From: an uncultured Thermococci archaeon
GTDB lineage: Archaea; Methanobacteriota_B; Thermococci; Methanofastidiosales; NM3
Assembly (NCBI GenBank): GCA_964435645.1
Contig: CAYSZY010000001.1
Location: forward strand, 1-36,707
Length of the DNA: 36,707 nucleotides
Direction of reading: 5' to 3'
Program-made: the position numbers and the translations under genes
The notes under the pieces: model-generated
Databases searched by the model: none
The model's input: only the letters and a program-made list of their open reading frames with translations
Told to the model about the DNA's origin: nothing
In this document: piece after piece, positions 6,979 to 35,524 of the stretch
Numbering within the stretch: the first letter of the stretch is position 1
Layout: each line of letters opens with the position of its first letter

Positions 6979-8588
6979 TACTCGAGCACCTTTCCCGCAG
7001 AGAGCGCGTTCCGGTGCAGTTCCTCGGTAATCTCGTCAGCGTTGCCCGTCTTGACTATCTTTCCAAACTCCATCATGGACACCCGGTCGCATACTTCTCT
7101 TGCAAAGTCCATGTTGTGTGTAACAATAATAAACGTTTCGTCAAGATTTTTTCGGGCGTTCTTGATGGCGATGGCCACCTTAGACCGCGTTATGGGATCC
7201 ATGGTGCCCGACGGTTCATCAAGGATTATGAGGTCCGGCTCGCGTATGAGCACCTGCGAAAGCGCGATGCGGTGGCGCTCCCCGACTGAAAGCGAATTTG
7301 GGTATGTGTCAAGAATACTCTTTGACTTTTCAGGGGAGAATCCTATCGAGGTAAGCACCTGCAGCGCCTTGATGCGGGCAAGCTCTTTGGGGAGGGTCAT
7401 ACCGATGGCATCGGTAAGATTCTCAAAGATGGTGCGTGACGGGTATAGCGAGTACTCCTGGTGAAGAATGCCAATATGCCGCTTTGCACGCCCCCGCTCT
7501 AGGAATCCCGGCTTGGTCATATCTATCCACTCATCGCCCACGCGGACGTTTATTTCCCCTTCGGTGGGTTCTGTTATTCCCCCTATGAGTCGGGAAAGTG
7601 TCGTCTTGCCGGCGCCGCTCGTTCCGAGGAGTCCGTATATCTCATTCTCCTTCACATCCAGCGTCACGTCGTCAACAGCCTTGACCAGGCCACGCATGAT
7701 GGAGTAGAAGTACTTCTTGACGTTGCGCACCTCGACCTTGTTTTTATCCCTGGTGTCATGGTGTTCGACCTCGATGACGGGCATCTCCTCGAGAAACTCG
7801 TTGATAAGTTCCTTCGGCTTGCCATATCCGCGCATCTTGCCTTCATCCAGCCATACGACGGAGTCAGCAATCTCCTCTATGACACGGGGATTGTGCGAGG
7901 TTATAACAAGCGGCATGCCCGCTGCCTTGGCGACATCCTTAAGGACATCAAGCACGATTTTGGATGTATTGGGATCGAGGGTGCCGGTTGGTTCGTCGGC
8001 AAGAAGGATAAGCGGCTCCATCGCGAGCTGGCGCGCAAGGACTACCCGCTGCTTTTCGCCGCCGGAGAGATCCTTGGCTATGTGCAGCATCCGGTGCCCC
8101 ATCTTGACCATCTCAAGCAGTTCGGTGACCCGCTTTATGCGATCCTTTTCAGGATACCCGATCGCCTGCAGTTCCTTAAGGATATTCTCGTATACGGTAA
8201 GCTCACCGTAGAGCGCGAACGTCCGCTGTAGCATGATAGAAATATAGCTCTTCACCAGCTTCTGCTCAGAAGTAGGTAAGTTCCACAAATCAAAAGAAGA
8301 TTTTGCGTAGACGCTTTCACATTTCGGGCAATGTATACCCACCTTTGAGGGGTCATCGTAAACATCGCACTTTTCACAGTGGCTAAAGTAATATTTGATA
8401 GTACCTTCGTCGGGGCGATAATCGGTGGAACCGCGGATCATGTGGATAAGGACTGACTTTCCAGCACCGCTCTTGCCGATAATTCCCAGAACTTCACCGG
8501 ATTTGAGGTCAAACGACACATCGTCGAGAACCTTTGCCCCGTTGAAAGACTTCGATATGCCCTTTACGGATAAGAGAATTGATTGCAA
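6978..8588 (-). CDS. atwA: MCR system component A2 (AtwA), tandem ABC ATPase
   Basis: 536 aa with two ABC cassettes: GKSGAGKS with LSGGEKQR and GTSGAGKTT with LSVGERHR. The first cassette carries the CEKC...CPKC zinc-ribbon insertion typical of AtwA. Its stop overlaps the mcrC start by 1 nt. Confidence 0.9.
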
Positions 8589-8660
8589 AATACTATACCC
8601 CCTTTGGCGAAAGTGGGATATGAGAATTTAAAAATGTATGCCCAAATCTTTTTAAACAAA

Positions 8661-8674
8661 TTAGGTTAACCTAA
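8661..8674. promoter_or_regulatory. Perfect 14-bp palindrome TTAGGTTAACCTAA, a putative DtxR-family operator at the feoA promoter
   Basis: It lies between the TATA-like TTTTTAAA (8649-8656) and the GTG start of feoA (8679). Its arms match the outer arms of the DtxR/IdeR box (TTAGGTTA...TAACCTAA). Confidence 0.6.
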
Positions 8675-8678
8675 TCTT

Positions 8679-8903
8679 GTGTCAAAAAGATTATCAGAGA
8701 TATCATCAGGAGGGCGCGCGTACGTACAGAGTATCGAAGGAGGGCTCAATGTCCGACAGAGACTGTGCGAGCTCGGCGTGCATCCCGGCGAGTCGGTGCT
8801 GGTGGAAAAGACCGGCATACTCGGAGGCCCCCTCATGCTCAAAGTTGGGGATCACCATATTGCAATTGGCAAAGGGCTGGCACAAAAAATTCTCGTGGAT
8901 TAA
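8679..8903 (+). CDS. feoA: FeoA-family protein
   Basis: 74 aa with a GTG start. RLCELGVHPGESVLVEKTGILGGPLMLKVGDHHIAIGKGLAQKILV is an SH3-like FeoA pattern. Confidence 0.85.
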   Translation: MSKRLSEISSGGRAYVQSIEGGLNVRQRLCELGVHPGESVLVEKTGILGGPLMLKVGDHHIAIGKGLAQKILVD

Positions 8904-8945
8904 CTACGCATTCCTGCAGAATCGCACCAGCACTTCGCCAAAAGT

Positions 8946-8982
8946 AATAGGGGTTCCTAATAATAATAGGGGTACCTAATAA
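8946..8982. promoter_or_regulatory. Two tandem TAGG-N4-CCTA palindromes (8948-8959 and 8967-8978) upstream of feoB
   Basis: Direct repeat AATAGGGGT(T/A)CCTAATAA with a 19-bp period. Each copy contains TAGGnnnnCCTA, as does the feoA site. The copies flank an AT-rich TATA-like TAATAATAAT. The SD AGGAGG lies at 9029-9034. Confidence 0.55.
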
Positions 8983-9042
8983 CCGAATCGGCATTGTCAG
9001 AGGCAGCCGGCCAACGTACAGGCCCAACAGGAGGAACACGAG

Positions 9043-10950
9043 ATGAACATAGCGATGGCAGGACAGCCAAACAGCGGCAAAAGCACCATCTTTAACCATG
9101 TCGCGGGTTACAAAACGATAACATCTAATTTTCCGGGCAAGACCGTCGAGTACACTGAAAGCAAGGTGACGATAGATGGAGGGGTCCACACACTCATAGA
9201 CCTTCCGGGCACCTACTCACTCACGTCTCTGGACCCGGCAGAGCTTGAGGCGCGCAACTACCTGCTCAGGCGGCATGCCGACGTTACCATCAACGTGGTG
9301 GACGCATCCCTGCTTGCGCGCAGCATCGAGCTGACCATACAGGTCTCGGAGCTTGAGGTTCCGTACATCCTGGTGCTCAACATGATGGACGAGGCGAGCA
9401 GGAAGGGTGTCATCATCGACAAGGAGCGATTGTCCCGGGAGCTCGGCGTCCCCGTGGTGGAGGCCATGGCGAACAAGGGAATCGGCATCACCCAGGCCTT
9501 AGAAGCGGCCGTAGCCCACGCGGGCGGGGTGCCCCGGCAGCATGTCATCAGGTACAGCAAGCACGTGGAGGATGCCATCCTGGGGCTCATTCCCCATATC
9601 GAGGGGCATGCGAAGGCCCATGGCCTGCCGGCACGGCTCTTTTCCCTCAAGCTTCTGGAGGCGGACCCCTACTTCGAGAATCTCGTCCCGGTGTCTATAA
9701 TGGAGGACGTGGTGGTGCCGGCGCGGGAAGTGCTGGAGGAAGACCACGGCCAGCCATCGGATGTCGTCATCTCATCTGAGCGGCACGCCCAGGCGCTCAA
9801 CATCTTCGAGCGCGTCGCCTATGTCAAAAAAGCGGTTACGGAGCCCAGCGAGCGTCTTGACGGGCTGCTCATGCACCCCGTCTACGGGTATGCGGCGCTT
9901 ATCATTATCCTCTACGGGTTCTTCAATCTCATCTTCAGGGTGGGAAACGTGCTGGAACCGCCCATAATGGACTTTTTCATGTTGGAGGTGGAGCCTGCGG
10001 TTCTCGCCCATATCCCGGAGGGATTTGCCTCGACAGCCGTCACCGGCGTGATTCAGGGCATTGCCGGCGGCATCGGCATCGTCCTCCCCTACCTCCTGCC
10101 GTTCCTTGTGGGGCTCTCGCTCCTAGAGGATGTGGGATACCTTCCCCGAATCGCATTCCTCCTCGACACCTTTCTCCACAAGATAGGCCTTCACGGCAAG
10201 TCCATCATCCCGCTCATCCTGGGGTACGGCTGCAGCGTCCCAGCCATCATGGGGGCGCGCATCCTCGAGTCGAGGCGGGACCGATTCATCGTCATAACGA
10301 TGACGTCGATGATTCCCTGTGCCGCGCGCATTACGATCATCCTGGCGCTTGTCGGCGCCTACCTCGGCGGCAACTGGGCGCTCTTCGTGTTCCTGTTCAA
10401 CATCGCGGTCATCGCGCTGGTGGGGTTCATTCTTTCGCGCATTATGCCTGAGGACGTCCCGGGCATGATGCTCGAGATCCCCTCATACCACAAGCCATCA
10501 CTCAAGGTCATCATGCACAAGACCTGGTTCAGGATGAAGGAGTTCATCGTCATCGCATGGCCCATCATCATCGCCGGGTCCCTCGTGCTCTCGATACTGG
10601 AGTACCTCGAATGGGTGACGTACATCAACACGGCGCTCTCGCCGCTTACCCTGCTTCTCGGGCTTCCCTTAGTCGTGGGGACCACCCTGGTCTTCGGTGT
10701 GCTGAGAAAGGAGCTGGCAATGCTCATGCTTTTCCAGGCACTGGGGACCGACGTGGTGCTCGACGTCATGACAAAGACACAGATAATGACGTTTACCATG
10801 TTTATAATATTCTACGTGCCCTGTGTGGCAACGATAGGGGTCATGGTGCGCGAACTCGGAAAACGGGGCACCGGGCTTGCCGTCGGAATCGGCCTGCTGG
10901 TAGCGACCGTGGTCGGCGTGCTTACGCGGGTGGTGGGGATGGTGCTTTGA
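9043..10950 (+). CDS. feoB: Ferrous iron transporter FeoB
   Basis: 635 aa. N-terminal G domain (GQPNSGKST, DLPGTYSL, NMMD) followed by a polytopic membrane domain. Confidence 0.95.
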   Translation: MNIAMAGQPNSGKSTIFNHVAGYKTITSNFPGKTVEYTESKVTIDGGVHTLIDLPGTYSLTSLDPAELEARNYLLRRHADVTINVVDASLLARSIELTIQVSELEVPYILVLNMMDEASRKGVIIDKERLSRELGVPVVEAMANKGIGITQALEAAVAHAGGVPRQHVIRYSKHVEDAILGLIPHIEGHAKAHGLPARLFSLKLLEADPYFENLVPVSIMEDVVVPAREVLEEDHGQPSDVVISSERHAQALNIFERVAYVKKAVTEPSERLDGLLMHPVYGYAALIIILYGFFNLIFRVGNVLEPPIMDFFMLEVEPAVLAHIPEGFASTAVTGVIQGIAGGIGIVLPYLLPFLVGLSLLEDVGYLPRIAFLLDTFLHKIGLHGKSIIPLILGYGCSVPAIMGARILESRRDRFIVITMTSMIPCAARITIILALVGAYLGGNWALFVFLFNIAVIALVGFILSRIMPEDVPGMMLEIPSYHKPSLKVIMHKTWFRMKEFIVIAWPIIIAGSLVLSILEYLEWVTYINTALSPLTLLLGLPLVVGTTLVFGVLRKELAMLMLFQALGTDVVLDVMTKTQIMTFTMFIIFYVPCVATIGVMVRELGKRGTGLAVGIGLLVATVVGVLTRVVGMVL

Positions 10951-11366
10951 AATCCAGGGTAGAAGAGTATCTCAGGGCAATGTGGTCACTTGAGGAGAAG
11001 GGCATAGGCCCCATCAGGGTGAGGGACATAGCCCTGGCCCTTGACGTCACGCCGCCCAGCGTCGTGCAGATGCTCCACAAGCTTGAGGCACTGGGGCTCA
11101 TAAGCTACAGCAAGCACCGGCATGTGACCTTTACGGAACCGGGGCGCACGGAGGGTGCCACCATCGTCCGGTACCATCGGCTCATGGAGGTTCTCTTCGC
11201 GGATGTCATAGAGGGGGAAAACGAGGATGTGGAGCGGCTTTCAGAGGGCGCGGAACATTTCATCTCCCCTGCAATCGCAGAAAAGCTCTGCACGTTCCTG
11301 AATCACCCTGACACATGCCCGCATGGCAAAACGATTCCGAAAGGGCCCTGCTGCGATATCGAATGA
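10947..11366 (+). CDS. DtxR/MntR-family metal-dependent transcriptional repressor
   Basis: VEEYLRAMWSLEEKG...VTPPSVVQMLHKLEALGLI...YHRLMEVLF...CPHG motifs. Proposed TTG start at 10947 overlaps the feoB TGA (TTGA). The ATG at 10980 is the conservative alternative. The 10557 extension in the ORF track is an artefact inside feoB. Confidence 0.85.
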   Translation: MKSRVEEYLRAMWSLEEKGIGPIRVRDIALALDVTPPSVVQMLHKLEALGLISYSKHRHVTFTEPGRTEGATIVRYHRLMEVLFADVIEGENEDVERLSEGAEHFISPAIAEKLCTFLNHPDTCPHGKTIPKGPCCDIE

Positions 11367-12268
11367 TTACACGAAGCTCCCGAATTGACGAAATGTTTAA
11401 AAATACACGCCAAGAGTACAACGTTGGTGAGACCATGGATTCTGACAATATTCCTTTGCCAGAAAATGATGGAGATTCATTCTTGCGGAGAAATTCCAAA
11501 TACATTGGCATTATCATTCTGCTCGTAATCATCATCTCTGCCCTCTTTGTGGCATTCCAGGCCAAGGGGGATGACATAGACCCGGATTTTGCGCGGGCAA
11601 ACGCGTTCTATCCGGAAAAGTCACTGCAAAGCTGGTACCTCATGTACCTATCCGATAAAAGCCTCTATTACGAAGAGGTAACCCAAAAACTAAGTGACAC
11701 GCAGTACGTCATAACGGAGGACTCCACAGGGATGCCCCACACACTGACGTTTTACGATGAAATCGACGATGTTTCAGGCGAGTCGCAATGGTATGTCATG
11801 ATTGAGGACGACAAGGAAACGGCCGAGGCCATCAGCATATACTTTGATGTGAAGGACTATGTCGGCAAAGAATCATTTACACTCATTCAGGAAACGGTAT
11901 CGTATCAGTACCTCGATAATATCCACCTGCTCTTCGGGGCATGGGAGGAAGCTGGCGTCGAAAATCAGCAGCTCGCCTACGGCATGTCGACCATCGCCGA
12001 GGCTGTCGGGAAACGGGTGGGAGATACGGACAAAATCGTTATCGACGAGATATCCGATGATTACTTTATAGATATATACAAGGGAGATATCGGCACCCCG
12101 AGCAATCCCATCATATATGTGATGACAGAACCGTATGGTGCGCTCAAGAACAATATCGTATTCCCAAACGACGGCGTTATTGTTATCGAAGTTCCAGACT
12201 ACCAGCAGCTCAGGCTCTTTAGCCTTGTGGTGGGGGAGCTTATCGCACCGTCCGGGGTAACCGAATGA
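11363..12268 (+). CDS. Uncharacterised single-pass membrane protein with an acidic ectodomain
   Basis: ATGA overlap with the dtxR stop. One TM helix (YIGIIILLVIIISALFVAF) after about 55 cytoplasmic residues, then a D/E-rich domain of about 230 aa. I recognise no family. Alternative starts at 11393 and 11435. Confidence 0.6.
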   Translation: MITRSSRIDEMFKNTRQEYNVGETMDSDNIPLPENDGDSFLRRNSKYIGIIILLVIIISALFVAFQAKGDDIDPDFARANAFYPEKSLQSWYLMYLSDKSLYYEEVTQKLSDTQYVITEDSTGMPHTLTFYDEIDDVSGESQWYVMIEDDKETAEAISIYFDVKDYVGKESFTLIQETVSYQYLDNIHLLFGAWEEAGVENQQLAYGMSTIAEAVGKRVGDTDKIVIDEISDDYFIDIYKGDIGTPSNPIIYVMTEPYGALKNNIVFPNDGVIVIEVPDYQQLRLFSLVVGELIAPSGVTE

Positions 12269-13107
12269 GGCGCATTACCGTCATTGATGCAATCATCATT
12301 GCGATACTGCTCTTTTCCCTCTATTCTTTTGTTTCGCGAGAGTCGACGGTGTACTCACAGGTTGACGAGTACTACTACACAGGCTCTCAGATTTACAAGG
12401 CTACAAGCTACATGGACTTCCTTGACTCCAAGGGATTCCTCTATGACACCTATGTCAGGGGATACTGGTGGTCGGACTACCTCGCCTTTGACGAGACAGG
12501 ATATGTCATCGAAGCGGGGAACGGGTCGTTTTCCCTGCTCAGGGACAACGGCGAGGTCGTTACCATCGGGGGGCGCATGAGCTACCGGGAACAGGTAGGC
12601 GCCAGCGAGATACGGCTTATCATCAAGACCAAGTCCGTTGTGACCATGCGCATGTACTCAGGCACATACGCATCCTTTGGGGCATACAGTGATACGGTCA
12701 TGGGTGCCTGCGCATTCCTTGGCAAGTTCGCCATAGACGACATCGCCATAACCGGCACCATCTCATGGGATGCGGATGTGTCGCCATCGAAAATCGCCGA
12801 GGCCGAGCTTGAGGACCTGATCAGGAAATCACTCCATTACGTCAAGGGCATAGACGTCGAGCTTGCCGAGGGGGGCGGCTCTGTCACCATAACCCAAGGA
12901 AGCATAGATGAGCTTTCATCCATTCCGGCACTGCTCGGGGAGCACGGAATGGGGGAGTCGCCCGTCTTTGTATCCGACGCAACGGTCATTGTGCGCACAG
13001 GGGAGGAAATCGGCGAGCTTGACAAGTACGGCATCAAGCAGCACATCAGCGACCACCTGGCGGGCATCTTCGACGCCGATGGGAACGCCATACACATAAG
13101 GTTATGA
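12265..13107 (+). CDS. Uncharacterised N-terminally anchored membrane protein
   Basis: ATGA overlap with the upstream gene. TM helix ITVIDAIIIAILLFSLYSFV at the N-terminus, then a soluble domain of about 250 aa with no recognisable motif. Confidence 0.65.
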   Translation: MRRITVIDAIIIAILLFSLYSFVSRESTVYSQVDEYYYTGSQIYKATSYMDFLDSKGFLYDTYVRGYWWSDYLAFDETGYVIEAGNGSFSLLRDNGEVVTIGGRMSYREQVGASEIRLIIKTKSVVTMRMYSGTYASFGAYSDTVMGACAFLGKFAIDDIAITGTISWDADVSPSKIAEAELEDLIRKSLHYVKGIDVELAEGGGSVTITQGSIDELSSIPALLGEHGMGESPVFVSDATVIVRTGEEIGELDKYGIKQHISDHLAGIFDADGNAIHIRL

Positions 13108-14741
13108 TCATGCTGGAGCAGCCACTCGTCATGGCCGCCAACGTGGTGTTGGCGCGATATGCACGACTCAAGGGCAGGCCCCCCCGCGTCATCGACTGCG
13201 AGGTCGCAAAAACATGGGGGGTGGAGGACCTTGCGCACGGCATCGGGTACGGCATCGATGCCACCATACGGTGGGTAGACGCCTCAATTGAAAAAAGTGC
13301 CATCGGGAGGGGACTTTCACGGGCGTACCGCTCTGTGACCACCGGCGTTCCCGGCATACCCATGCTCGGTGCGCACGCGTCGGACAGCGCCGTCGCCCGG
13401 CTTACGCACCCGCTTATCTTCATTGTTGCGTACATCGCCTTTCTCGGCTTGGGCGACCATGGGATTTCCGCCTTTGCGCTCTGGTCGCTGGCTGCGTCGC
13501 TCGCAGCATATGCGGTGGGCACCAGGCTTGGTCCAATGCGCCTGCCCCCGATTCCCGCTGCGGCAATCCGCATAAGCATCGCCGCATTCGCGCTGGCACT
13601 GGTGTCGACGGCAGCCGTGGGGCAGGCAGGCGCAAAGATTGCGCTGCTGCCGCTGTGCATCCTCATCGTGGCGGGGAGTACGGGCATCTATGCGAGCATC
13701 GCGTCCGCCGTTGCGGGGTACGCCCTGTTTACCCAAGGGCAGTGGAGCCTGGGCCTGCCGTACCTTTTGCTGGGCGCCATCGGCACCGCACACAACTACA
13801 AAAGCCCGCGGCTCGGCAGGCTGCTTGAGTCCAACGCCGTTCCCATCGCGCTCTTCCTCATGTTCATCGGCACCTTTTACTGGGTGCTTGACATCGCCCT
13901 CGTGGGGCGAATACCGCTCTTCTCGTCGCGAGAGGGGCTCGACCCCACATACACCATGCGGTCCCACCTGCTCCCCATCGGCGCCATATTCCTCATATCG
14001 ATTATGGGGGAACAGGTGTCGAGGGAAGGCGGGCATGCGAAAGCCCGCACCGTGTCCCTGCTTGCATTGGGATTCTCCTTGGCGCTCATGGCGCTGCTCG
14101 GGTACCGGACGCAGGTGCTCATAACACTTATCGGCGGCATCATAGCACTGCTGTTCTGGAAGCTCATATCCACCAAGGAGCTCATTGCCGCCGGCGGTGC
14201 CCTTGCAGGGCTCTTTGCCGTGATGACCCTCCTGAGGTCCCAGACCACGGGCGCGCACGTTGGCGTCATAGAGTCGCTGTCGCTTCGGACTGGCCTGACC
14301 CTCGACATCTACGACATGATGGCGTCCCTCGGGGGGTGGTGGGGATTTACCAAGGGGCAGACATACATGGCAACCGTCTCCAAGTTTGCCACGCTCATGC
14401 CCGGCCTTGCATACTCTCCCCGCAGGTATGTCGCCGTTTTTGCCGGAACCACCGGCATCTCGATGACATCAACGCTTCTCGGGCCCATCGCACTGGACTT
14501 CGGGCTTGCCGGTTCCATTGCGGCAATGGTCGCCGCGGGATGGATGATCTCTCGTGTGAAACATATCATCTCGGTTGCCCCCGGCCGTCAGAAAAGCATA
14601 CTCGTCACCCTCTACGCCATGGTGCTCGGGTATATGATCCTCGGCATCGAGACGGGCCTTGTGGACTATGAGGTCATCATGCTCTTTGCCGGAACGCTGC
14701 TCTACACGCTCTACGTGGGACGCATGACACAATATACTTAA
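13104..14741 (+). CDS. Polytopic membrane protein (545 aa), possibly a Wzy-like oligosaccharide repeat-unit polymerase (weak guess)
   Basis: ATGA overlap with the upstream gene. About 100 soluble N-terminal residues, then 10 or more hydrophobic helices. The Wzy-like guess rests only on overall topology and LLGYRTQVLITLIGG-type segments. Confidence 0.65.
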   Translation: MIMLEQPLVMAANVVLARYARLKGRPPRVIDCEVAKTWGVEDLAHGIGYGIDATIRWVDASIEKSAIGRGLSRAYRSVTTGVPGIPMLGAHASDSAVARLTHPLIFIVAYIAFLGLGDHGISAFALWSLAASLAAYAVGTRLGPMRLPPIPAAAIRISIAAFALALVSTAAVGQAGAKIALLPLCILIVAGSTGIYASIASAVAGYALFTQGQWSLGLPYLLLGAIGTAHNYKSPRLGRLLESNAVPIALFLMFIGTFYWVLDIALVGRIPLFSSREGLDPTYTMRSHLLPIGAIFLISIMGEQVSREGGHAKARTVSLLALGFSLALMALLGYRTQVLITLIGGIIALLFWKLISTKELIAAGGALAGLFAVMTLLRSQTTGAHVGVIESLSLRTGLTLDIYDMMASLGGWWGFTKGQTYMATVSKFATLMPGLAYSPRRYVAVFAGTTGISMTSTLLGPIALDFGLAGSIAAMVAAGWMISRVKHIISVAPGRQKSILVTLYAMVLGYMILGIETGLVDYEVIMLFAGTLLYTLYVGRMTQYT

Positions 14742-26985: not shown

Positions 26986-27888
26986 ATGTATGACGTTGTT
27001 ATCATAGGTGGTGGGCCGGGCGGCCTTACCGCAGCCATGTACAGTGTCCGCTCAAATCTTAAGACAATTCTTATTGAGAAGGAATTCCTTGGCGGATACG
27101 TCTCTTACGCGGGCGTTATTGAAAACTACCCGGGATTCCCTGAGGGTATCACGGGATTCGAGCTTGGCCAAAAGATGGGGGAGCAGGCCCAAAAGGCGGG
27201 TGTGGAAATCTCATATGAGCCAGTAGTCGGCATCGATCCGGAAAAGATGGTAGTGCACACAGGGAAACGGGACATCGAAACAAAGGCAATCGTCCTCTCG
27301 CCCGGGCTACGCCACAAGGAGCTCGGGGTTCCTGGGGAGGATGCGTTTAAGAGCAAGGGCGTTGTCTACTGCACCACGTGCGACGGCCCGTTGTATGCGG
27401 GGAAGAAAACAGTTGTCGCGGGAAAGGGCATTCCCGGGATTACCGCATCGCTCTATCTGGACGAGATAGCCGAAAGCGTTACGCTTGTAACGCCAACTAG
27501 GGAGCTTAAGGCAAAGGAGACCATATATCTTGACAAAATCCGTGACAGCAACGTCACGGTAATCACCAACGCCACGGTAAAGGAACTGCAGGGGGATACT
27601 GTTTTGGAGCGGGTGGTAATTGTTGACAAGGCCACGGGCACAGAGACTGTGCTTGACGCAGACGGCATCTTTGTCAATATTGGGAAAGTCCCGAACACGG
27701 GATTCCTCACGGGCAGCGGCATAGGGCTGGACAAGAAGGGATTTATCACCGTAGACGAAAATCAGATGACGTCAAGGCAGCTTGTATTCGCTATCGGAGA
27801 TGCGACCACGGACCCGTACAAACAGATATCCACGGCCGTTGGGGACGGCGCCAAGGCGGCGCTCAATATCACAAAACTCCTCAAGTAG
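26986..27888 (+). CDS. Low-Mr thioredoxin-reductase-like flavoprotein lacking the NADPH-specificity motif
   Basis: 300 aa. VVIIGGGPGG FAD motif, redox CTTCDG and GDAT. The second Rossmann region reads AGKGIPGITAS...VTLVTPTRELKA instead of GGGxxA...HRRxxxR. Confidence 0.85.
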   Translation: MYDVVIIGGGPGGLTAAMYSVRSNLKTILIEKEFLGGYVSYAGVIENYPGFPEGITGFELGQKMGEQAQKAGVEISYEPVVGIDPEKMVVHTGKRDIETKAIVLSPGLRHKELGVPGEDAFKSKGVVYCTTCDGPLYAGKKTVVAGKGIPGITASLYLDEIAESVTLVTPTRELKAKETIYLDKIRDSNVTVITNATVKELQGDTVLERVVIVDKATGTETVLDADGIFVNIGKVPNTGFLTGSGIGLDKKGFITVDENQMTSRQLVFAIGDATTDPYKQISTAVGDGAKAALNITKLLK

Positions 27889-27897
27889 GTTGCACCC

Positions 27898-28500
27898 ATG
27901 CACAAGAACATGCTTTTTATGGTGCTCATACTTGCATCCATGGTGCTTTCAGGCTGCGTATCGGGAGACTCGCAACCAACGACGACAGTCTCACCCACGA
28001 CCACGGCGGCACCTACAACGGAACCGCCCACCACGGCACCCCCGACGACACCGGCTGCAGAGATACGCCAGCCTGGCGACCATGGCGACATCCCCTGGCA
28101 ACAGTATGACGATGCATTTCAAAAGGCGCGTGAAGATGGAACGTACGTGTTCATGTACTTCTGGAGAGACCAATGCAAATTCTGCTCATTACTGTCGTCC
28201 TCGACATTCATAGACCCTGCAGTGGTATCATACCTGGAAGAACACTTTGGGATTGTGGACGTGGACATTTGGTCCGATGCGCCCATCTCGGCGGCAGACC
28301 CCTCACTCAGCGGCGAGACGCTTAACGCTCGATTCCGGCCACCAGGCGTTCCTGCCATGGCCATACTTGATGCTAATGGCAACGTCATTATCGGCATATC
28401 CGGTTACAAGTCTTCAGAATCACTGCTCGCCATACTCGGGTATGTGGCGAGCGGTTCGCATGAGAATATGACAATAGAGGAATATATGAATAATATATGA
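27898..28500 (+). CDS. Exported thioredoxin-fold lipoprotein (CKFC active site)
   Basis: Signal peptide with lipobox LSGC. Thr/Pro-rich linker (TTTVSPTTTAAPTTEPPTTAPPTTP). Thioredoxin-like domain YVFMYFWRDQCKFC...GVPAMAILD. Confidence 0.7.
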   Translation: MHKNMLFMVLILASMVLSGCVSGDSQPTTTVSPTTTAAPTTEPPTTAPPTTPAAEIRQPGDHGDIPWQQYDDAFQKAREDGTYVFMYFWRDQCKFCSLLSSSTFIDPAVVSYLEEHFGIVDVDIWSDAPISAADPSLSGETLNARFRPPGVPAMAILDANGNVIIGISGYKSSESLLAILGYVASGSHENMTIEEYMNNI

Positions 28501-31307: not shown

Positions 31308-31315
31308 TTTATAAA
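31308..31315 (+). promoter_or_regulatory. TATA box (TTTATAAA) upstream of the RING-like surface-protein gene
   Basis: Consensus octamer in an AT-rich spacer, 49 nt upstream of the ATG at 31357. Confidence 0.45.
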
Positions 31316-31356
31316 TAATTATTAATCAGTATGTAGTATATATCAGGGTGTGTAGG

Positions 31357-33420
31357 ATGGATGAGCGATGCGAGATATGTGGGGAAGGGATACCCCGCAC
31401 GTCAATGGTACACTGCAGGCACTGCAACACGATGTACCATTTTGAGTGTATTAAGAATCACCTGTTTAATAGCAAGACGTGTCCATACTGCGGAAAGCAT
31501 ACATCCCTGATGCATTACCCCCGTGGGCACCCCCACCCTTCCACGGCCGCGCCTGGCCCGAGGGAATCCCCCTCATCGCACCGCCCGGCTGTTGCAACCA
31601 AGGGGCGCCAACAATGGGGTGCATCGCCTCCTGCATCGCCACAGGCAGGTACACAGCCCCGTGCATCCCCTCCCCCCAAAAAAGAGAACGACAGGCCTAG
31701 GGGGGGTATCGTGCTTCTCATCATGAACTTTTTTGTCGTTGTGCTCTTGTTGGCTTCGGCATATTATGCAAGCTCCAATTACATTGGGTACGCACCGGAC
31801 ATAACGGCAGAAACAACTTCTGCGACCGTACTGCCGGGAGACGCGGTAACGATTCCCTTTTCTGTGGAGAACTCGGGCAATCTGGTGGCGCACTATACGC
31901 TTTCGATAGAGGCGTCGGGCACATCGCTGCCCGTGGGGTGGGACCCCATACTCTACGAAGGATCTGATGAGATAGGCCTCTCATCCCATGTTAAGCTTGA
32001 GCCGCTTTCGCCAAGAACGTTTTCACTTGCCATGACAACCGGCAGCAATGACAACGCGAACACCCAAGGGAACGTGAAGATCGCAATTACATCCAATGAC
32101 GGAAAATACACAGACAGCCTGGTCTTCAACATCGCGACCGAAGCGATATACCAATACGATATTACGCAGAGCGACACAGTCAAATACGGCTCAGCTGGCG
32201 AAACTGCATCATATTCTTTCATGATTTCCAATAAAGGCAATTCAAGCGATACCTACAACGTTGATATTGCAAGTGCGACATCGGGATGGACTGCAGCACT
32301 TCTCAAAAAAGAAAGTATCACCCTCGACGCGGGAAGGTCTGCATCACTAATCGTAACGATCACAGCACCGGAAACGGCCCAAGGCAACGACCAGGGGGAC
32401 ATATCGCTCGCAATAAGCTCACAACGCAATCCGGGGCAGCCAGAATCACTGGACTTTAGTATGGTGGTCAATCCAACATACGGATTTGAGCTGCTCTCTA
32501 ACGAGCAGAACAGGGTAGTCCTCGGCGGAACAATGACCACATTTACCTTTAAAATACGCAATGTGGGAAATTCAAGCGACACCTACACGATAATCGAGCA
32601 GGTCGCATTCCCCTCCGGTTGGGAATCCACCGTGAGCAAACGTGAACTTACGATAGCACCTGATGATGCCGTAACAGTGGGCGTTACGATCACAATCCCC
32701 GATGATGCGCTTCCCAGCCTCAAAGGCATATCAACAGTCAGTGTCATCTCCGCAGGCAGTGATGAGACGAGCACGGCCAGATTTGAGGTGTCAACTGCAG
32801 CGCGGCAATCGAAAGTTGTGCTCCTTGAGCTGTTTACCTCGGTCAACTGCGGATACTGCCCTTATGCCGAACAGGCCATGGAGCAGCTGCTCCTTGAATA
32901 CCCCGGAAAAGTCGTCGCACTGGAGTATCACCTTAATGATGAGTTCGTCAAACGATACACTGAGACAAAGGCGGCAGTATACGGCATGTCAGGGACGCCG
33001 CAGGCAATGTTTGATGGGAATAGAAAAGTGCCGGGAGGGTCGGGCAATACGTATAGCGAATATGTCACAAAGCTCCTTAATCTCATCAACGAAGAGCTGA
33101 AAGTGCGTATCGATGTTGCCAGTACCTCATCAGAAGAGCCAGGCATGAGGGACGTGACCGTGGTCCTCAAGAACATGGGGCTTCCGCCAACGGCGGACCT
33201 TGAAGTGTTCTTTGTGGCATACAGCAACGGCCTCTCCCCCAGAAACAATCGTACAAAGGTGTATAACTATGTGGTCATTGACGGCACCAGCAGGCATCTT
33301 GGCACACTGGATAACATGACGACGCTGAACATGACACTCGAGATTCCCTCTGATGGGGGGCTCGTGATCTATGTGCAGGATAAAGATACACGCACTATAT
33401 ACCAGTCGATAATGATATGA
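31357..33420 (+). CDS. Membrane protein with an N-terminal C4HC3 RING/PHD-like zinc finger, Pro/Ser-rich linker, TM helix, three CARDB-like beta-sandwich repeats and a thioredoxin-like CxxC domain
   Basis: Zinc finger: C5-x2-C8-x11-C20-x2-C23-x4-H28-x2-C31-x10-C42-x2-C45, with YHFECIKNHL...CPYC. TM helix IVLLIMNFFVVVLLLASAYYA. Three repeats of about 105 aa carrying N(S/K/V)GN(L/S)xxxYT-type motifs. VVLLELFTSVNCGYCP is thioredoxin/DUF1223-like. The ATG at 31357 is preferred over the GTG at 31348. Confidence 0.8.
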   Translation: MDERCEICGEGIPRTSMVHCRHCNTMYHFECIKNHLFNSKTCPYCGKHTSLMHYPRGHPHPSTAAPGPRESPSSHRPAVATKGRQQWGASPPASPQAGTQPRASPPPKKENDRPRGGIVLLIMNFFVVVLLLASAYYASSNYIGYAPDITAETTSATVLPGDAVTIPFSVENSGNLVAHYTLSIEASGTSLPVGWDPILYEGSDEIGLSSHVKLEPLSPRTFSLAMTTGSNDNANTQGNVKIAITSNDGKYTDSLVFNIATEAIYQYDITQSDTVKYGSAGETASYSFMISNKGNSSDTYNVDIASATSGWTAALLKKESITLDAGRSASLIVTITAPETAQGNDQGDISLAISSQRNPGQPESLDFSMVVNPTYGFELLSNEQNRVVLGGTMTTFTFKIRNVGNSSDTYTIIEQVAFPSGWESTVSKRELTIAPDDAVTVGVTITIPDDALPSLKGISTVSVISAGSDETSTARFEVSTAARQSKVVLLELFTSVNCGYCPYAEQAMEQLLLEYPGKVVALEYHLNDEFVKRYTETKAAVYGMSGTPQAMFDGNRKVPGGSGNTYSEYVTKLLNLINEELKVRIDVASTSSEEPGMRDVTVVLKNMGLPPTADLEVFFVAYSNGLSPRNNRTKVYNYVVIDGTSRHLGTLDNMTTLNMTLEIPSDGGLVIYVQDKDTRTIYQSIMI

Positions 33421-33470
33421 TGGGGATTCATACGCCGCGAACCGCGATAGATTTATATAAATTAATAAAT

Positions 33471-33504: not shown

Positions 33505-33930
33505 ATGCAAGAAAACGGGGAGATATACCTTGAAATCAAGGCCATCTCAGACAGATTGTCTGAGGTAGCCACAAAAATAGGGCAGACGGATACGGCACAA
33601 GACCTCCCGTACGATGAAGGGGTGCCGATAGAACTGATTGATGTTGAACTGTGTGCGGACCTTTTTAAGGCACTTTCCAACGACGACCGGCTCAGGATCC
33701 TGAGGTCCCTTGGACAGGATTCGTCATACTTTGCGCAACTCTCGCAACTGACCGGCCTTGACAACAGCCCGTTGCGATTTCACCTTACCGTCCTCAAAGA
33801 AGTGAATCTCATCAACCAAGAGCGGTTCAGAGGAAAATATATGATTACCAGGCTTGGCAGGCAGGCGCTTGCTATGGCTTCATATTTTTATATTAATATG
33901 CAAAAGCAGGGAGTGCATGAACATGAATGA
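33505..33930 (+). CDS. ArsR-family winged-helix transcriptional regulator with an N-terminal extension of about 45 aa
   Basis: LFKALSNDDRLRILRSLGQDSSYFAQLSQLTGLDNSPLRFHLTVLKEVNLI is the ArsR/SmtB HTH pattern. Confidence 0.8.
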   Translation: MQENGEIYLEIKAISDRLSEVATKIGQTDTAQDLPYDEGVPIELIDVELCADLFKALSNDDRLRILRSLGQDSSYFAQLSQLTGLDNSPLRFHLTVLKEVNLINQERFRGKYMITRLGRQALAMASYFYINMQKQGVHEHE

Positions 33931-35524
33931 ACGGGAGCACACCAGCATTGTCTCCAAGGTGGGCGGGGTATTCTTTTTCCTGTGGATTATCAGCCTCGGT
34001 TCCAACGTATTGGGATCATACCAGTACAAGAAAGAGTTTCTACTCATTTCATTGGCATTATGGGTACTTGACGCATTTATCGGCGCATGCCGCACGCGGG
34101 ATGCCACGGTGGGGAAAAGGCTTGCGCACGGGTTCCTAAAAATGGGCTCCATGTCGCTTGGATTCTGGATATTGCTCCATACCCTCAATGCCATTGGATG
34201 GCTTGAGCAATGGTGGGGCCAGTATATCACCTATGCCCTGTGGGCCGCACTCGTGTTCATATGTGCAGGATTTATGCTCAATGCGCTACTATCAAAGGGG
34301 CACGTATGGAAAGTACGCTCGGGCATGTACTCTGCAGGCGGTATCGTCCTCTTATTTTGGGCAGTATTGCGCTACCAGGGGCTTTATGCACCTTCACAGG
34401 ACATGGCCATTGTCGCGGGAATTGCGCTCATATCTGTGGGATTTCTCATTGGGGCAGCGAAAAAGGAATATGACTACCCCTTTATCAATGAGGCATATGC
34501 AGGGATACGGGAAAAGATGGTAGAGGTGCCGGTATTTGAGGCATCGGACTCCGTGCATGTGCTTACCGAGGAATCAAAGATTGGAAATGATGCATCCATA
34601 ACAATCAATGCCGGTTCGCTGTTCGTGGACATCTTCAAGGATGCAATCCATGTTGGGACAGTGTACTTCGGCGAATGCAGCTATGCCATACGCACAACGG
34701 TACATACGCTAACGGGGCATGCCGCCAGCATGGTATACGGCCACGGCACAGAATGGAACGAAGCGCTGTATGGACAAGGATCACGACGGGCCGAGCAGGG
34801 GGACTTTGCCAGGTTCGGTCTCACAAAGAAGGACATCAAGGAACTTGGGCTTATCTTCGCATCAAACGACCCCCGTGCTGCAGAGAAATTCGAAGACATC
34901 ATCCAGCGCATCACAGAGACCGGTAAAAAAGTATCACTCCCGTTTATCAAAGTGTTTGAAAGCAGTGAGGGAGATTACGTCAAAGTCGGCCCCATTCAAG
35001 TGACAGACCTGAAGGGAAAAGGGTCGAAGGTGCGCATTGGAAACAGGACGTTTGTGGATCCGAAAGACGCGGTCCCCCATGACGGCGAGCACGAAGGCAT
35101 TGCCATCAGGATAAGGACGCCGGACAACACCATATCCCTCGTTATCGACAGCCATGGGATCCTGGCAGAGGATAATACGTTTAGCGTCGCCATCACATCG
35201 TCGGGCGAATCCATCGAGAAGGGGGATGTCTCTTACACCAATGATGGAAGGAAAAAAATCATTGAATCCCCCTTTGCTGAAATAGTGGCAAAGAAGGATA
35301 GGATAAACGTAAAGACAGATACGCTTAAAGTAACCATCAAAGGCGGGCTTATCACCGCATCCAAGGCGCAGCGGCACATTGAGACGACAAATGAGGCACT
35401 CGCACAGCTTTTTTCTCGAAGAATCGAGGCGTTTTTCCCTGCCGTTGTCGACGGCGCGCTTAAGGGTGATAAGACGGCTATCTCGCACCTGGAAAAATCG
35501 CTGCTGGAAGAGCTGGACCTATGA
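33917..35524 (+). CDS. Uncharacterised membrane protein: 6 predicted TM helices and a soluble domain of about 350 aa from no family I recognise
   Basis: It overlaps the ArsR gene by 14 nt (an ATG at 33923 is an alternative). Six hydrophobic helices fall in the first 200 aa or so. The remainder is beta-rich looking, with His/Cys patches (GECSYAIRTTVHTLTGHAASMVYGHG, PHDGEHEG). Confidence 0.7.
   Translation: MNMNEREHTSIVSKVGGVFFFLWIISLGSNVLGSYQYKKEFLLISLALWVLDAFIGACRTRDATVGKRLAHGFLKMGSMSLGFWILLHTLNAIGWLEQWWGQYITYALWAALVFICAGFMLNALLSKGHVWKVRSGMYSAGGIVLLFWAVLRYQGLYAPSQDMAIVAGIALISVGFLIGAAKKEYDYPFINEAYAGIREKMVEVPVFEASDSVHVLTEESKIGNDASITINAGSLFVDIFKDAIHVGTVYFGECSYAIRTTVHTLTGHAASMVYGHGTEWNEALYGQGSRRAEQGDFARFGLTKKDIKELGLIFASNDPRAAEKFEDIIQRITETGKKVSLPFIKVFESSEGDYVKVGPIQVTDLKGKGSKVRIGNRTFVDPKDAVPHDGEHEGIAIRIRTPDNTISLVIDSHGILAEDNTFSVAITSSGESIEKGDVSYTNDGRKKIIESPFAEIVAKKDRINVKTDTLKVTIKGGLITASKAQRHIETTNEALAQLFSRRIEAFFPAVVDGALKGDKTAISHLEKSLLEELDL

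Follow-up and report, generated by a model that had tools for sequence, protein, structure and literature searches.

A membrane-anchored protein of an uncultured Methanofastidiosales archaeon joins a predicted RING-type zinc finger to a thioredoxin-fold domain predicted to lie outside the cell

What would a RING-type zinc finger be doing at the inner end of an archaeal membrane protein? RING fingers are a hallmark of eukaryotic ubiquitin ligases and occur only sporadically in prokaryotes. The question is raised by a gene on contig CAYSZY010000001.1 of assembly GCA_964435645.1, from an uncultured Thermococci archaeon (Methanofastidiosales, NM3), of which we analyzed a single stretch of 36,707 nucleotides (positions 1 to 36,707 of the forward strand; hereafter, the window). 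The gene, at 31357-33420 on the + strand, encodes a 687-residue protein that had been singled out in an earlier reading made from the letters and open reading frames (ORFs) without database searches (the sequence-only reading). Here we describe this target protein, its relatives, and its genomic setting. Our preferred reading, held with moderate confidence, is that it is a type II thiol-redox protein of the cell surface, specific to the lineage of an uncultured euryarchaeal methanogen, and that its cytoplasmic RING finger is an interaction handle shared with other membrane proteins.

The target ORF begins with an ATG at 31357 and its stop codon ends at 33420; an in-frame GTG at 31348 offers an alternative start, and the frame is uninterrupted from there to 33420. 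The coding sequence is complete (687 amino acids plus stop), and full-length homologs retain the N terminus. The protein contains nine Cys residues in total, seven within the N-terminal finger plus C498 and C501. Finger ligands are spaced C5-x2-C8-x11-C20-x2-C23-x4-H28-x2-C31-x10-C42-x2-C45 (C4HC3), exactly as the sequence-only reading had described for the first 45 residues. We delimit the finger to residues 1 to 58 (31357..31530, +; ligands at nucleotides 31369-31491), which include a conserved tail, S50-L-M-H-Y-x-R-G57, and are predicted to be cytoplasmic. A generic regular expression for RING/PHD-type fingers matches nowhere else when the whole window is translated in all six frames. Full-length relatives are few, amounting to eight 90%-identity clusters (41 to 86% identity) and three genome loci, all from metagenome-assembled genomes labelled Methanomicrobia or Methanofastidiosia by NCBI. 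Across about seven orthologous lineages (39 to 86% identity) the eight ligands are invariant, with identical spacing at loci L001, L003, L006, L008, L014, and L016 and in database proteins P0001 and P0004. Because every full-length ortholog examined keeps all eight ligands at the same spacing, together with 9 to 10 Cys in total and the CxxC formed by C498 and C501, the finger is more than a chance pattern.

Sequence profiles place the finger among RING and PHD domains. Its ligands fit the spacing of the RING superfamily, which we tested as C-x2-C-x(9-39)-C-x(1-3)-[CH]-x(2-4)-[CH]-x2-C-x(4-48)-C-x2-C. The isolated domain exceeds the Pfam gathering threshold (GA) for zf-RING_2 (29.7 to 30.0 bits, GA 27.3; 24.5 bits in the full-length protein) and for PHD (PF00628; 26.3 to 26.5 bits, GA 24), the PHD match covering only model positions 1 to 33 of 47. 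The window protein scores 19.2 to 19.4 bits against the prokaryotic family Prok-RING_1 (PF14446), under the 29.1-bit cut-off. Among 16 diverged family members, zf-RING_2 is matched by 16/16 and Prok-RING_1 by 15/16 (both counted at E < 0.01; best Prok-RING_1 match among relatives, E 7.6e-8), and PHD by 13/16. When a profile of six orthologous fingers was compared with the PDB, the best single sequence match was the PHD finger of WSTF (1.1e-6), followed by the RING-H2 domains of Arkadia (6e-6), RNF38, RNF165, and RLIM; all eight ligands fall in register with the WSTF finger, and seven plus a Cys-for-His substitution with RING-H2. An hhalign comparison of a RING family alignment with RING-H2 and PHD-type sets returned 99.0% and 98.2%, respectively, but is circular, as the sets were drawn from the query's own matches, and was given no weight.

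Structure prediction separates these two folds. The AlphaFold model of residues 1 to 61 (predicted local distance difference test [pLDDT], 88.3) has strands at 17-19 and 26-28 followed by a helix at 29-38, a beta-beta-alpha arrangement. The top 50 PDB matches found by Foldseek with this model are nearly all RING or U-box chains, with query-normalized TM scores (TMq) of 0.65 to 0.82 over about 55 columns and a root mean square deviation (rmsd) near 1 Å for most; 3lrq, Rad18, LNX2, RING1B/BMI1, and TRAF6 match at TMq 0.75 to 0.82 and rmsd 0.9 to 1.4 Å, and Prp19 is also present. No description among these 50 names a zinc ribbon or a PHD finger. The Trp that precedes the last Cys pair as a PHD hallmark is absent, the residues before C42 being S-K-T. 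A PHD-type fold thus disagrees with the predicted helix 29-38, the missing Trp, and the lack of any PHD finger among the top 50 fold matches. Since curated profiles, PDB profile matches, and structure prediction agree, we assign the finger to the C4HC3 RING type. It is predicted with high confidence to adopt a binuclear RING/U-box fold rather than that of tandem zinc ribbons, and from the fold matches we infer cross-brace ligation, in which ligand pairs 1 and 3 would hold one zinc and pairs 2 and 4 the other. The preference of the sequence-only reading for a RING/PHD-like N terminus over a plain double zinc ribbon is therefore upheld by profiles, PDB matches, AlphaFold, and Foldseek alike; of the models it had proposed for comparison, zf-RING_2 and PHD score above cut-off, DZR scores below, and no zf-HC2 match is listed.

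Behind the finger lies a Pro/Ser/Ala/Arg-rich linker (residues 59 to 116; 31531..31704, +) that ends in a basic juxtamembrane stretch, KKENDRPRGG. Pro/Ser/Ala-rich composition extends over residues 49 to 118, AlphaFold predicts disorder (pLDDT < 50 at 61 to 117), and the linker is poorly conserved in the ortholog alignment. A single transmembrane (TM) helix follows (residues 117 to 140; 31705..31776, +), which is the only Kyte-Doolittle peak of the protein and is also helical in the AlphaFold model. Lys and Arg residues flanking this helix number four on the N-terminal side and zero on the C-terminal side, indicating an N-in/C-out topology with the finger in the cytoplasm and residues 141 to 687 outside. 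In the full-length AlphaFold model (mean pLDDT, 73.5) the order of elements is finger (1 to 55), linker (61 to 117), TM helix, three beta-sandwiches, a poorly modelled alpha/beta region (488 to 577), and a beta subdomain (583 to 686). The beta-sandwiches (pLDDT 85 to 92) correspond to three tandem immunoglobulin (Ig)-like repeats at residues 147 to 261, 267 to 371, and 377 to 480 (31795..32796, +), of the FixG_C / NEW3 / choice-of-anchor-T type. They are mutually 18 to 28% identical (E 5e-5 to 4e-12) and so are true repeats; repeats 2 and 3 carry NxGN..DTY, and repeat 1 has NSGNLVAHY instead. Pfam FixG_C (41.7 bits) and NPCBM_assoc/NEW3 (40.6 bits) match above their cut-offs, as does the NCBIfam model choice_anch_T (74.7 bits, cut-off 70). 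Searched with Foldseek, the full-length model yielded nothing but generic tandem-Ig proteins. The architecture and topology drawn by the sequence-only reading agree with Pfam, the charge flanks, the repeat alignment, and AlphaFold; its label for the repeats, CARDB/NEW3-like, holds for NEW3 but not for CARDB (PF07705), which scores 13.5 bits (E 0.087) against a cut-off of 22.7.

At the distal end of this stalk is a DUF1223/Omp28-like thioredoxin-fold domain with a C-terminal beta subdomain (residues 486 to 687; 32812..33417, +). Its CxxC (C498-G-Y-C501, nucleotides 32848-32859) lies within ELFTSVNCGYCP, residues 491 to 502 of the target, and P548 is a candidate cis-Pro. Pfam DUF1223 (PF06764) matches residues 489 to 664 at 32.2 bits (threshold 30.7), spanning model positions 1 to 187 of 202, which bears out the DUF1223-like, thioredoxin-like module named by the sequence-only reading; the further C-terminal beta domain that it reported is present, but within DUF1223 itself rather than as a separate domain. 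DUF1223 has been classed as a thioredoxin fold (PMC3091736). Further matches are to the NCBIfam model Omp28_seleno for an Omp28-related selenoprotein (E 4.8e-14), the MJ0307 thioredoxin model, and two PDB entries, 1fo5 (MJ0307 thioredoxin; 4.8e-4) and 2axo (the DUF1223 protein Atu2684; 1.3e-3). C498, C501, and P548 are invariant among the aligned orthologs, and P548 aligns with a Pro of the MJ0307 thioredoxin. In the AlphaFold model the CxxC falls between beta1 and alpha1, in the order beta1-CxxC-alpha1-beta2, at pLDDT < 50. DUF1223 and Omp28-related proteins share with the target both the profile matches and the motif ELFTS-x2-C-x2-CP; in the target, by contrast, the domain sits at the far end of an Ig stalk, on an archaeal protein that is anchored by a TM helix and has a RING in the cytoplasm. 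We infer that the ectodomain carries out thiol-disulfide chemistry, or thiol-based binding of a metal or other ligand, at the cell surface, and the selenoprotein relative in NCBIfam points towards redox activity.

The finger is not confined to this architecture. A hidden Markov model search with the finger profile across 1.84 billion representative proteins gave 176 matches at E < 1e-3, the majority of them eukaryote-type RING-H2 or PHD proteins. A distinct subset contains a whole cassette, namely an N-terminal C4HC3 finger, a [ST]-L-x4-5-G-x-P tail, a charged (basic) linker, and at least one TM helix. Beyond the cassette these proteins differ, comprising short forms of 158 to 195 amino acids (finger and TM only), multi-TM proteins, proteins of 615 to 628 amino acids with a beta-rich ectodomain, and an OppC-type ABC permease. 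Over 16 family sequences reaching down to 21% identity, the only invariant columns are the eight ligands and P43. In the permease fusion (L025, 5929-7257; also P0028) the finger stands at the N terminus of OppC, in an Opp operon with an OppB-type gene directly upstream. The 615- to 628-residue paralogs, typified by P0021, occur at L020 (3530-5416), L022 (6001-7851), L023 (4901-6748), and L024 (6001-7866); the C-terminal end of their ectodomain is weakly DUF3108-like. Their neighbors at L020, L022, and L024 are a nucleotidyltransferase-like gene and an ORF of 782 to 784 amino acids whose N-terminal sequence resembles phosphoenolpyruvate synthase, and those at L023 differ; no ubiquitin-system genes were seen beside the paralogs at these four loci. 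The paralogs come from metagenome-assembled genomes labelled Methanofastidiosia, and some bear the NCBI name [quoted passage not shown] A metagenome scan with a narrower alignment subset recovered seven loci, all of one paralog subgroup, and a homolog search with the 16-sequence RING alignment recovered one fragment only, its word prefilter being unsuited to a short, diverse domain. The precomputed Pfam list for P0044, a 74-residue RING fragment, names PF27108, an accession newer than the Pfam copy that we used, and a dedicated Pfam family for such fingers may thus already exist.

Our preferred reading joins these observations as follows. A cytoplasmic N-terminal C4HC3 finger, predicted to have the RING/U-box fold, would be followed by a disordered linker and a single TM helix; outside the cell, a stalk of three Ig-like domains would bear the DUF1223/Omp28-type thioredoxin-fold domain with its invariant CxxC and putative cis-Pro, and this ectodomain may reduce or isomerize disulfides, or bind a metal or other ligand through its thiolates, at the surface. 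The RING would be the reusable cassette of a small paralogous family of membrane proteins whose other domains are an OppC permease, a beta-rich ectodomain, multi-TM bodies, or nothing. Because otherwise unrelated membrane proteins begin with this finger-TM cassette, the RING is most likely a shared docking module, a common cytoplasmic handle that could link all of them to a single partner, be it for regulation, localization, or turnover; it is unlikely to read out the target's own ectodomain. This reading presupposes neither a classical E2-dependent ubiquitin ligase nor a sensor dedicated to the ArsR-type regulator encoded next to the target. Several points weigh against this reading. The proposed docking function is deduced from modularity alone; cross-brace ligation depends on fold matches, that is, on prediction, and the Cys/His pattern may itself bias AlphaFold towards RING. 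The thioredoxin core is modelled at low confidence around the CxxC, and the family is tiny, with about a dozen 50%-identity clusters, which limits comparative power. Our searches for ubiquitin-system genes covered the window and neighborhoods, and an unlinked E2 or ubiquitin-like system may lie elsewhere in the genomes.

Comparison with described proteins shows in which respects the target is unusual. Prokaryotic RING fingers were reportedly treated by Burroughs, Iyer, and Aravind in 2011, and some versions are said to be membrane-associated. A C4HC3 arrangement is typical of prokaryotic RINGs (PMC11354881). The target family shares with Prok-RING_1 a C4HC3 binuclear finger in a prokaryote, and nearly all of its members match that model; the window protein differs in scoring below the cut-off, and no ubiquitin-like, E2, or JAB neighbors were found. 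Eukaryotic RING-H2 E3s (Arkadia/RNF111, RNF38, RNF165) and the RING/U-box fold are among the best sequence-profile and structure matches of the finger, with which they have in common a beta-hairpin and central helix, C-x-[ILV]-C, and C-P-x-C. In contrast to these E3s, the fourth ligand of the target is Cys rather than His, with PHD-like spacing, the helix Trp is replaced by His, Lys, or Arg in the family, and the target has no linchpin Arg; its finger is N-terminal and precedes a TM helix, in an archaeal host with no E2 identified in the regions examined. With the PHD finger of WSTF (PDB 1f62), the best PDB sequence match, the target shares C4HC3 and a C-x2-C-x4-H-x2-C core. It departs from PHD in its partial Pfam match, the absent Trp, and the predicted central helix, and the Foldseek matches listed for the finger all point to RING/U-box.

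In its logic, a cytosolic RING connected through a TM segment to an ectodomain also recalls eukaryotic TM RING ligases, including PA-TM-RING proteins such as RNF13/GRAIL, ZNRF3/RNF43, and the MARCH (RING-CH) proteins. In MARCH proteins, too, a C4HC3 RING at the N terminus precedes the TM helices. The target is a type II protein with an N-terminal RING and one TM helix, whereas PA-TM-RING and ZNRF3 ligases are type I; it does not have the RING-CH spacing of MARCH (C-x-C-x7-H), and Pfam RINGv is not among the matches listed. We regard this likeness as analogy only, having found no evidence of homology beyond the RING superfamily. In the literature searched we found no description of a RING-TM-Ig3-DUF1223 fusion, of a RING-TM family with an OppC fusion, or of RING fingers in Methanofastidiosa. 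The sequence-only reading had known of no described family with this design; that is correct for the particular fusion in the literature searched, but prokaryotic C4HC3 RINGs are a described class and NCBI already names some paralogs RING finger proteins.

Part of the reason that such proteins are easily overlooked lies in their gene models. The database model for the window's gene (P0002, 569 amino acids) begins at residue 119, inside the TM helix, so that 31357-31710 and with it the finger is left out; we rejected it, as it starts within the helix and disregards a conserved open ORF upstream. P0008 is annotated with 557 amino acids, although the actual ORF (L008, 7611-8000 region) has 687 including the finger, and P0003 (660 amino acids) is annotated from Met26 and so truncated at its N terminus, with the upstream ORF open and conserved. 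Automated gene calls have thus cost three members (P0002, P0008, and P0003) their finger. A TATA-box-like element picked out by eye, TTTATAAATA (31309..31318, +), lies about 40 bp 5′ of the ATG at 31357 and is a candidate promoter for the target's own transcription, which fits the view that the long form is the real gene. A second candidate, TTTATATAAA (33451-33460), precedes the next gene, which encodes an ArsR-type regulator; both elements are AT-rich and lie about 40 to 45 bp 5′ of their respective genes, which suggests, as far as such motifs can be judged by eye, that the RING gene and the ArsR gene belong to separate transcription units.

Gene order in the window runs from isoleucyl-tRNA synthetase (IleRS) through a thioredoxin-reductase-like flavoprotein (26986-27888, +), a secreted thioredoxin-like lipoprotein (27898-28500, +), CobC, CobT, and CobS to the target, followed by an ArsR/DUF7347 winged-helix regulator, a 535-residue polytopic membrane protein, and an AIR-synthase-like (AIRS) gene. 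The lipoprotein combines a signal peptide whose last residue is Cys with a Thr/Pro-rich linker and a CKFC motif within WRDQCKFC. The regulator (33505-33930) and the membrane protein (33917-35524), together 33505..35524 on the + strand, follow the target as the sequence-only reading had it. The IleRS-target-AIRS order is kept at L006 and L008, the two loci whose flanks reach IleRS, where the orthologs are 41 to 44% identical; CobC, CobT, and CobS are present in L006 and not in L008. L014 and L016, which are shorter loci, retain the part from the target through ArsR and the membrane protein to AIRS, and L001 has a compatible arrangement of ORFs. This synteny marks the region as vertically inherited core chromosome rather than an island. 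The sequence-only reading had placed the target at the start of a lower-GC segment; a drop exists, but of only about 3 to 5 points (0.48 to 0.52 versus 0.53 to 0.58), within the spread of the window (0.476 to 0.628), and with the IleRS-to-AIRS region syntenic in relatives we rejected a genomic island. At L008, and by ORF layout at L001, the flavoprotein and lipoprotein pair lies directly upstream of the RING gene without CobC-CobT-CobS between; the conserved proximity of these two genes is in keeping with a thiol theme, though it is no proof of linkage. Elsewhere in the window, the ORFs at 908-1696, 11315-12268, and 12265-13107 have no Pfam match, and the second and third stand immediately 5′ of the gene for an O-antigen-polymerase-like membrane protein (13104-14741).

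Three other explanations bear on what the N-terminal finger is and does. One is that it consists of two independent zinc ribbons with sequential ligation, a generic structural or nucleic-acid-binding tail whose RING/PHD likeness comes from Cys spacing. Pfam Zn_ribbon_3 (PF13248) does reach 29.7 bits in the window protein (GA 27), if only by summing two short stretches, and there are weak matches to DZR, Zn_ribbon_6, and Nop10. Zn_ribbon_3 is matched by only 2/16 family members, against all 16 for zf-RING_2; DZR (PF12773), matched by 7/16, scores 15.7 bits for the target finger against a GA of 27.3; the ligands align with PHD and RING sequences over the entire domain; and the model has the central RING helix with no zinc ribbon among its top 50 fold matches. 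We consider tandem ribbons very unlikely. If the fold is RING, the protein could instead be a genuine membrane-bound E3, in which the RING would recruit a charged E2-like enzyme or other ubiquitin-like carrier and tag membrane or membrane-proximal proteins, possibly according to the state of the ectodomain, analogous to PA-TM-RING, ZNRF3/RNF43, and MARCH ligases. RING E3s contact and activate E2 through an aliphatic residue in C-x-[ILV]-C, a Trp or hydrophobic residue in the helix, the Pro and a hydrophobic residue in C-P-[ILVM]-C, and a linchpin Arg or Lys after the last Cys. Two of these positions are retained in the target, I7 (I, L, or V in 16/16 members) and the invariant P43, and the fold matches include the E2-bound RINGs of RING1B/BMI1-UbcH5c, TRAF6-Ubc13, and RNF38. 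The others are not: the helix Trp position aligns with H35 in both the RNF38 and Arkadia alignments and is H, K, or R in the family, residue 44 after P43 is variable, and opposite the linchpin Arg of RNF38 stands G46 (the alignment with Arkadia ends at the last Cys), a position that is Gly in 6/7 aligned orthologs (Tyr in L008) and varies among paralogs. No ubiquitin, ThiF/E1, UBC/E2, or JAB gene was found in the 36.7-kb window or in the ortholog and paralog neighborhoods examined. As cited in PMC11354881, a RING E3 cascade is known in at least one archaeon, Caldiarchaeum, and SAMP conjugation in euryarchaea needs neither E2 nor E3 (Humbard et al. 2010). The E3-like activity suggested by the sequence-only reading is therefore not borne out by the related loci or by the key E2-activating positions; an E2-dependent role of the target RING is possible but unsupported, and we judge a true E3 unlikely.

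The target might alternatively be a transmembrane signalling device for the neighboring ArsR protein, acting like an anti-sigma factor or anti-repressor, so that the redox or ligand state at the surface would alter the hold of the RING on the regulator or on the 535-residue membrane protein. Target, ArsR/DUF7347 gene, and the gene for the membrane protein of about 530 residues do stand in the same order in the window and at L001, L006, L008, L014, and L016. The latter two genes overlap, suggesting an operon, and the membrane protein (33917-35524) has no Pfam match. The operon, whose membrane protein ranges from 510 to 535 amino acids, extends past the RING lineage to metagenomic contigs, one labelled Euryarchaeota by NCBI, where distant homologs of the membrane protein (24 to 27% identity) lie behind an ArsR/DUF7347 gene with an extra gene of 110 to 125 amino acids between. 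At one of these, L015, genes for a Thioredoxin_3 protein, a 144-residue ORF, and a DsbD_2 (CcdA-like) membrane thiol-disulfide transporter follow downstream (8384-9921), which hints that the module is tied to extracytoplasmic thiol redox. Yet the pair has no RING protein nearby at L015 (5491-7965), L017 (353-2707), L018 (528-2834), or L019 (2486-4807); a gap of 84 bp precedes the ArsR gene, which has a TATA-like element to itself; and no regulators stand beside the paralogous RING-TM proteins. In L006 and L008, moreover, conserved order continues upstream as far as IleRS, a span of more than 10 kb occupied by unrelated housekeeping genes, so the adjacency of target and ArsR is explained by inherited order. 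The pair is an independent module whose proximity to the target is indistinguishable from inherited gene order. All that the target has in common with zinc-binding anti-sigma (ZAS) factors of the zf-HC2 family is the broad principle of a membrane protein with a zinc-binding domain in the cytoplasm; the ZAS motif, H-x3-C-x2-C, is unlike the target's finger, and zf-HC2 is not among the best 25 of the 37 Pfam families reported at E up to 10. To our knowledge, archaea have no sigma factors. The target is not a ZAS anti-sigma factor, and with the ArsR operon independent of RING in distant archaea, under an apparent promoter of its own, and the paralogs free of adjacent regulators, the anti-sigma-like signalling proposed by the sequence-only reading is left without support; we regard signalling to the neighboring regulator as quite improbable.

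Candidates for thiol chemistry at the surface of a strict anaerobe are rare, and the DUF1223/Omp28-type domain, with its CxxC and its Ig stalk, is one of them. The RING-TM family is under-annotated in databases because automated gene calls strip the finger from several members, including the window's own record. A more far-reaching possibility, which we hold to be improbable, is that a non-Asgard euryarchaeal methanogen lineage expanded membrane-anchored RINGs, carried by a surface redox protein, an Opp permease, and other membrane proteins, as true E3-like adaptors for an unrecognized conjugation or extraction/degradation pathway; if true, eukaryotic membrane RING ligases such as MARCH, Hrd1, and PA-TM-RING would have in these adaptors a counterpart or antecedent among prokaryotes. 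In either case, several unrelated membrane proteins of a methanogen lineage share a conserved, membrane-tethered RING cassette, and the regions examined contain no ubiquitin machinery linked to it. It may exemplify a RING used other than for E2 recruitment, and so be informative on the ancestral role of the domain, or alternatively it may point to an undiscovered archaeal tagging system.

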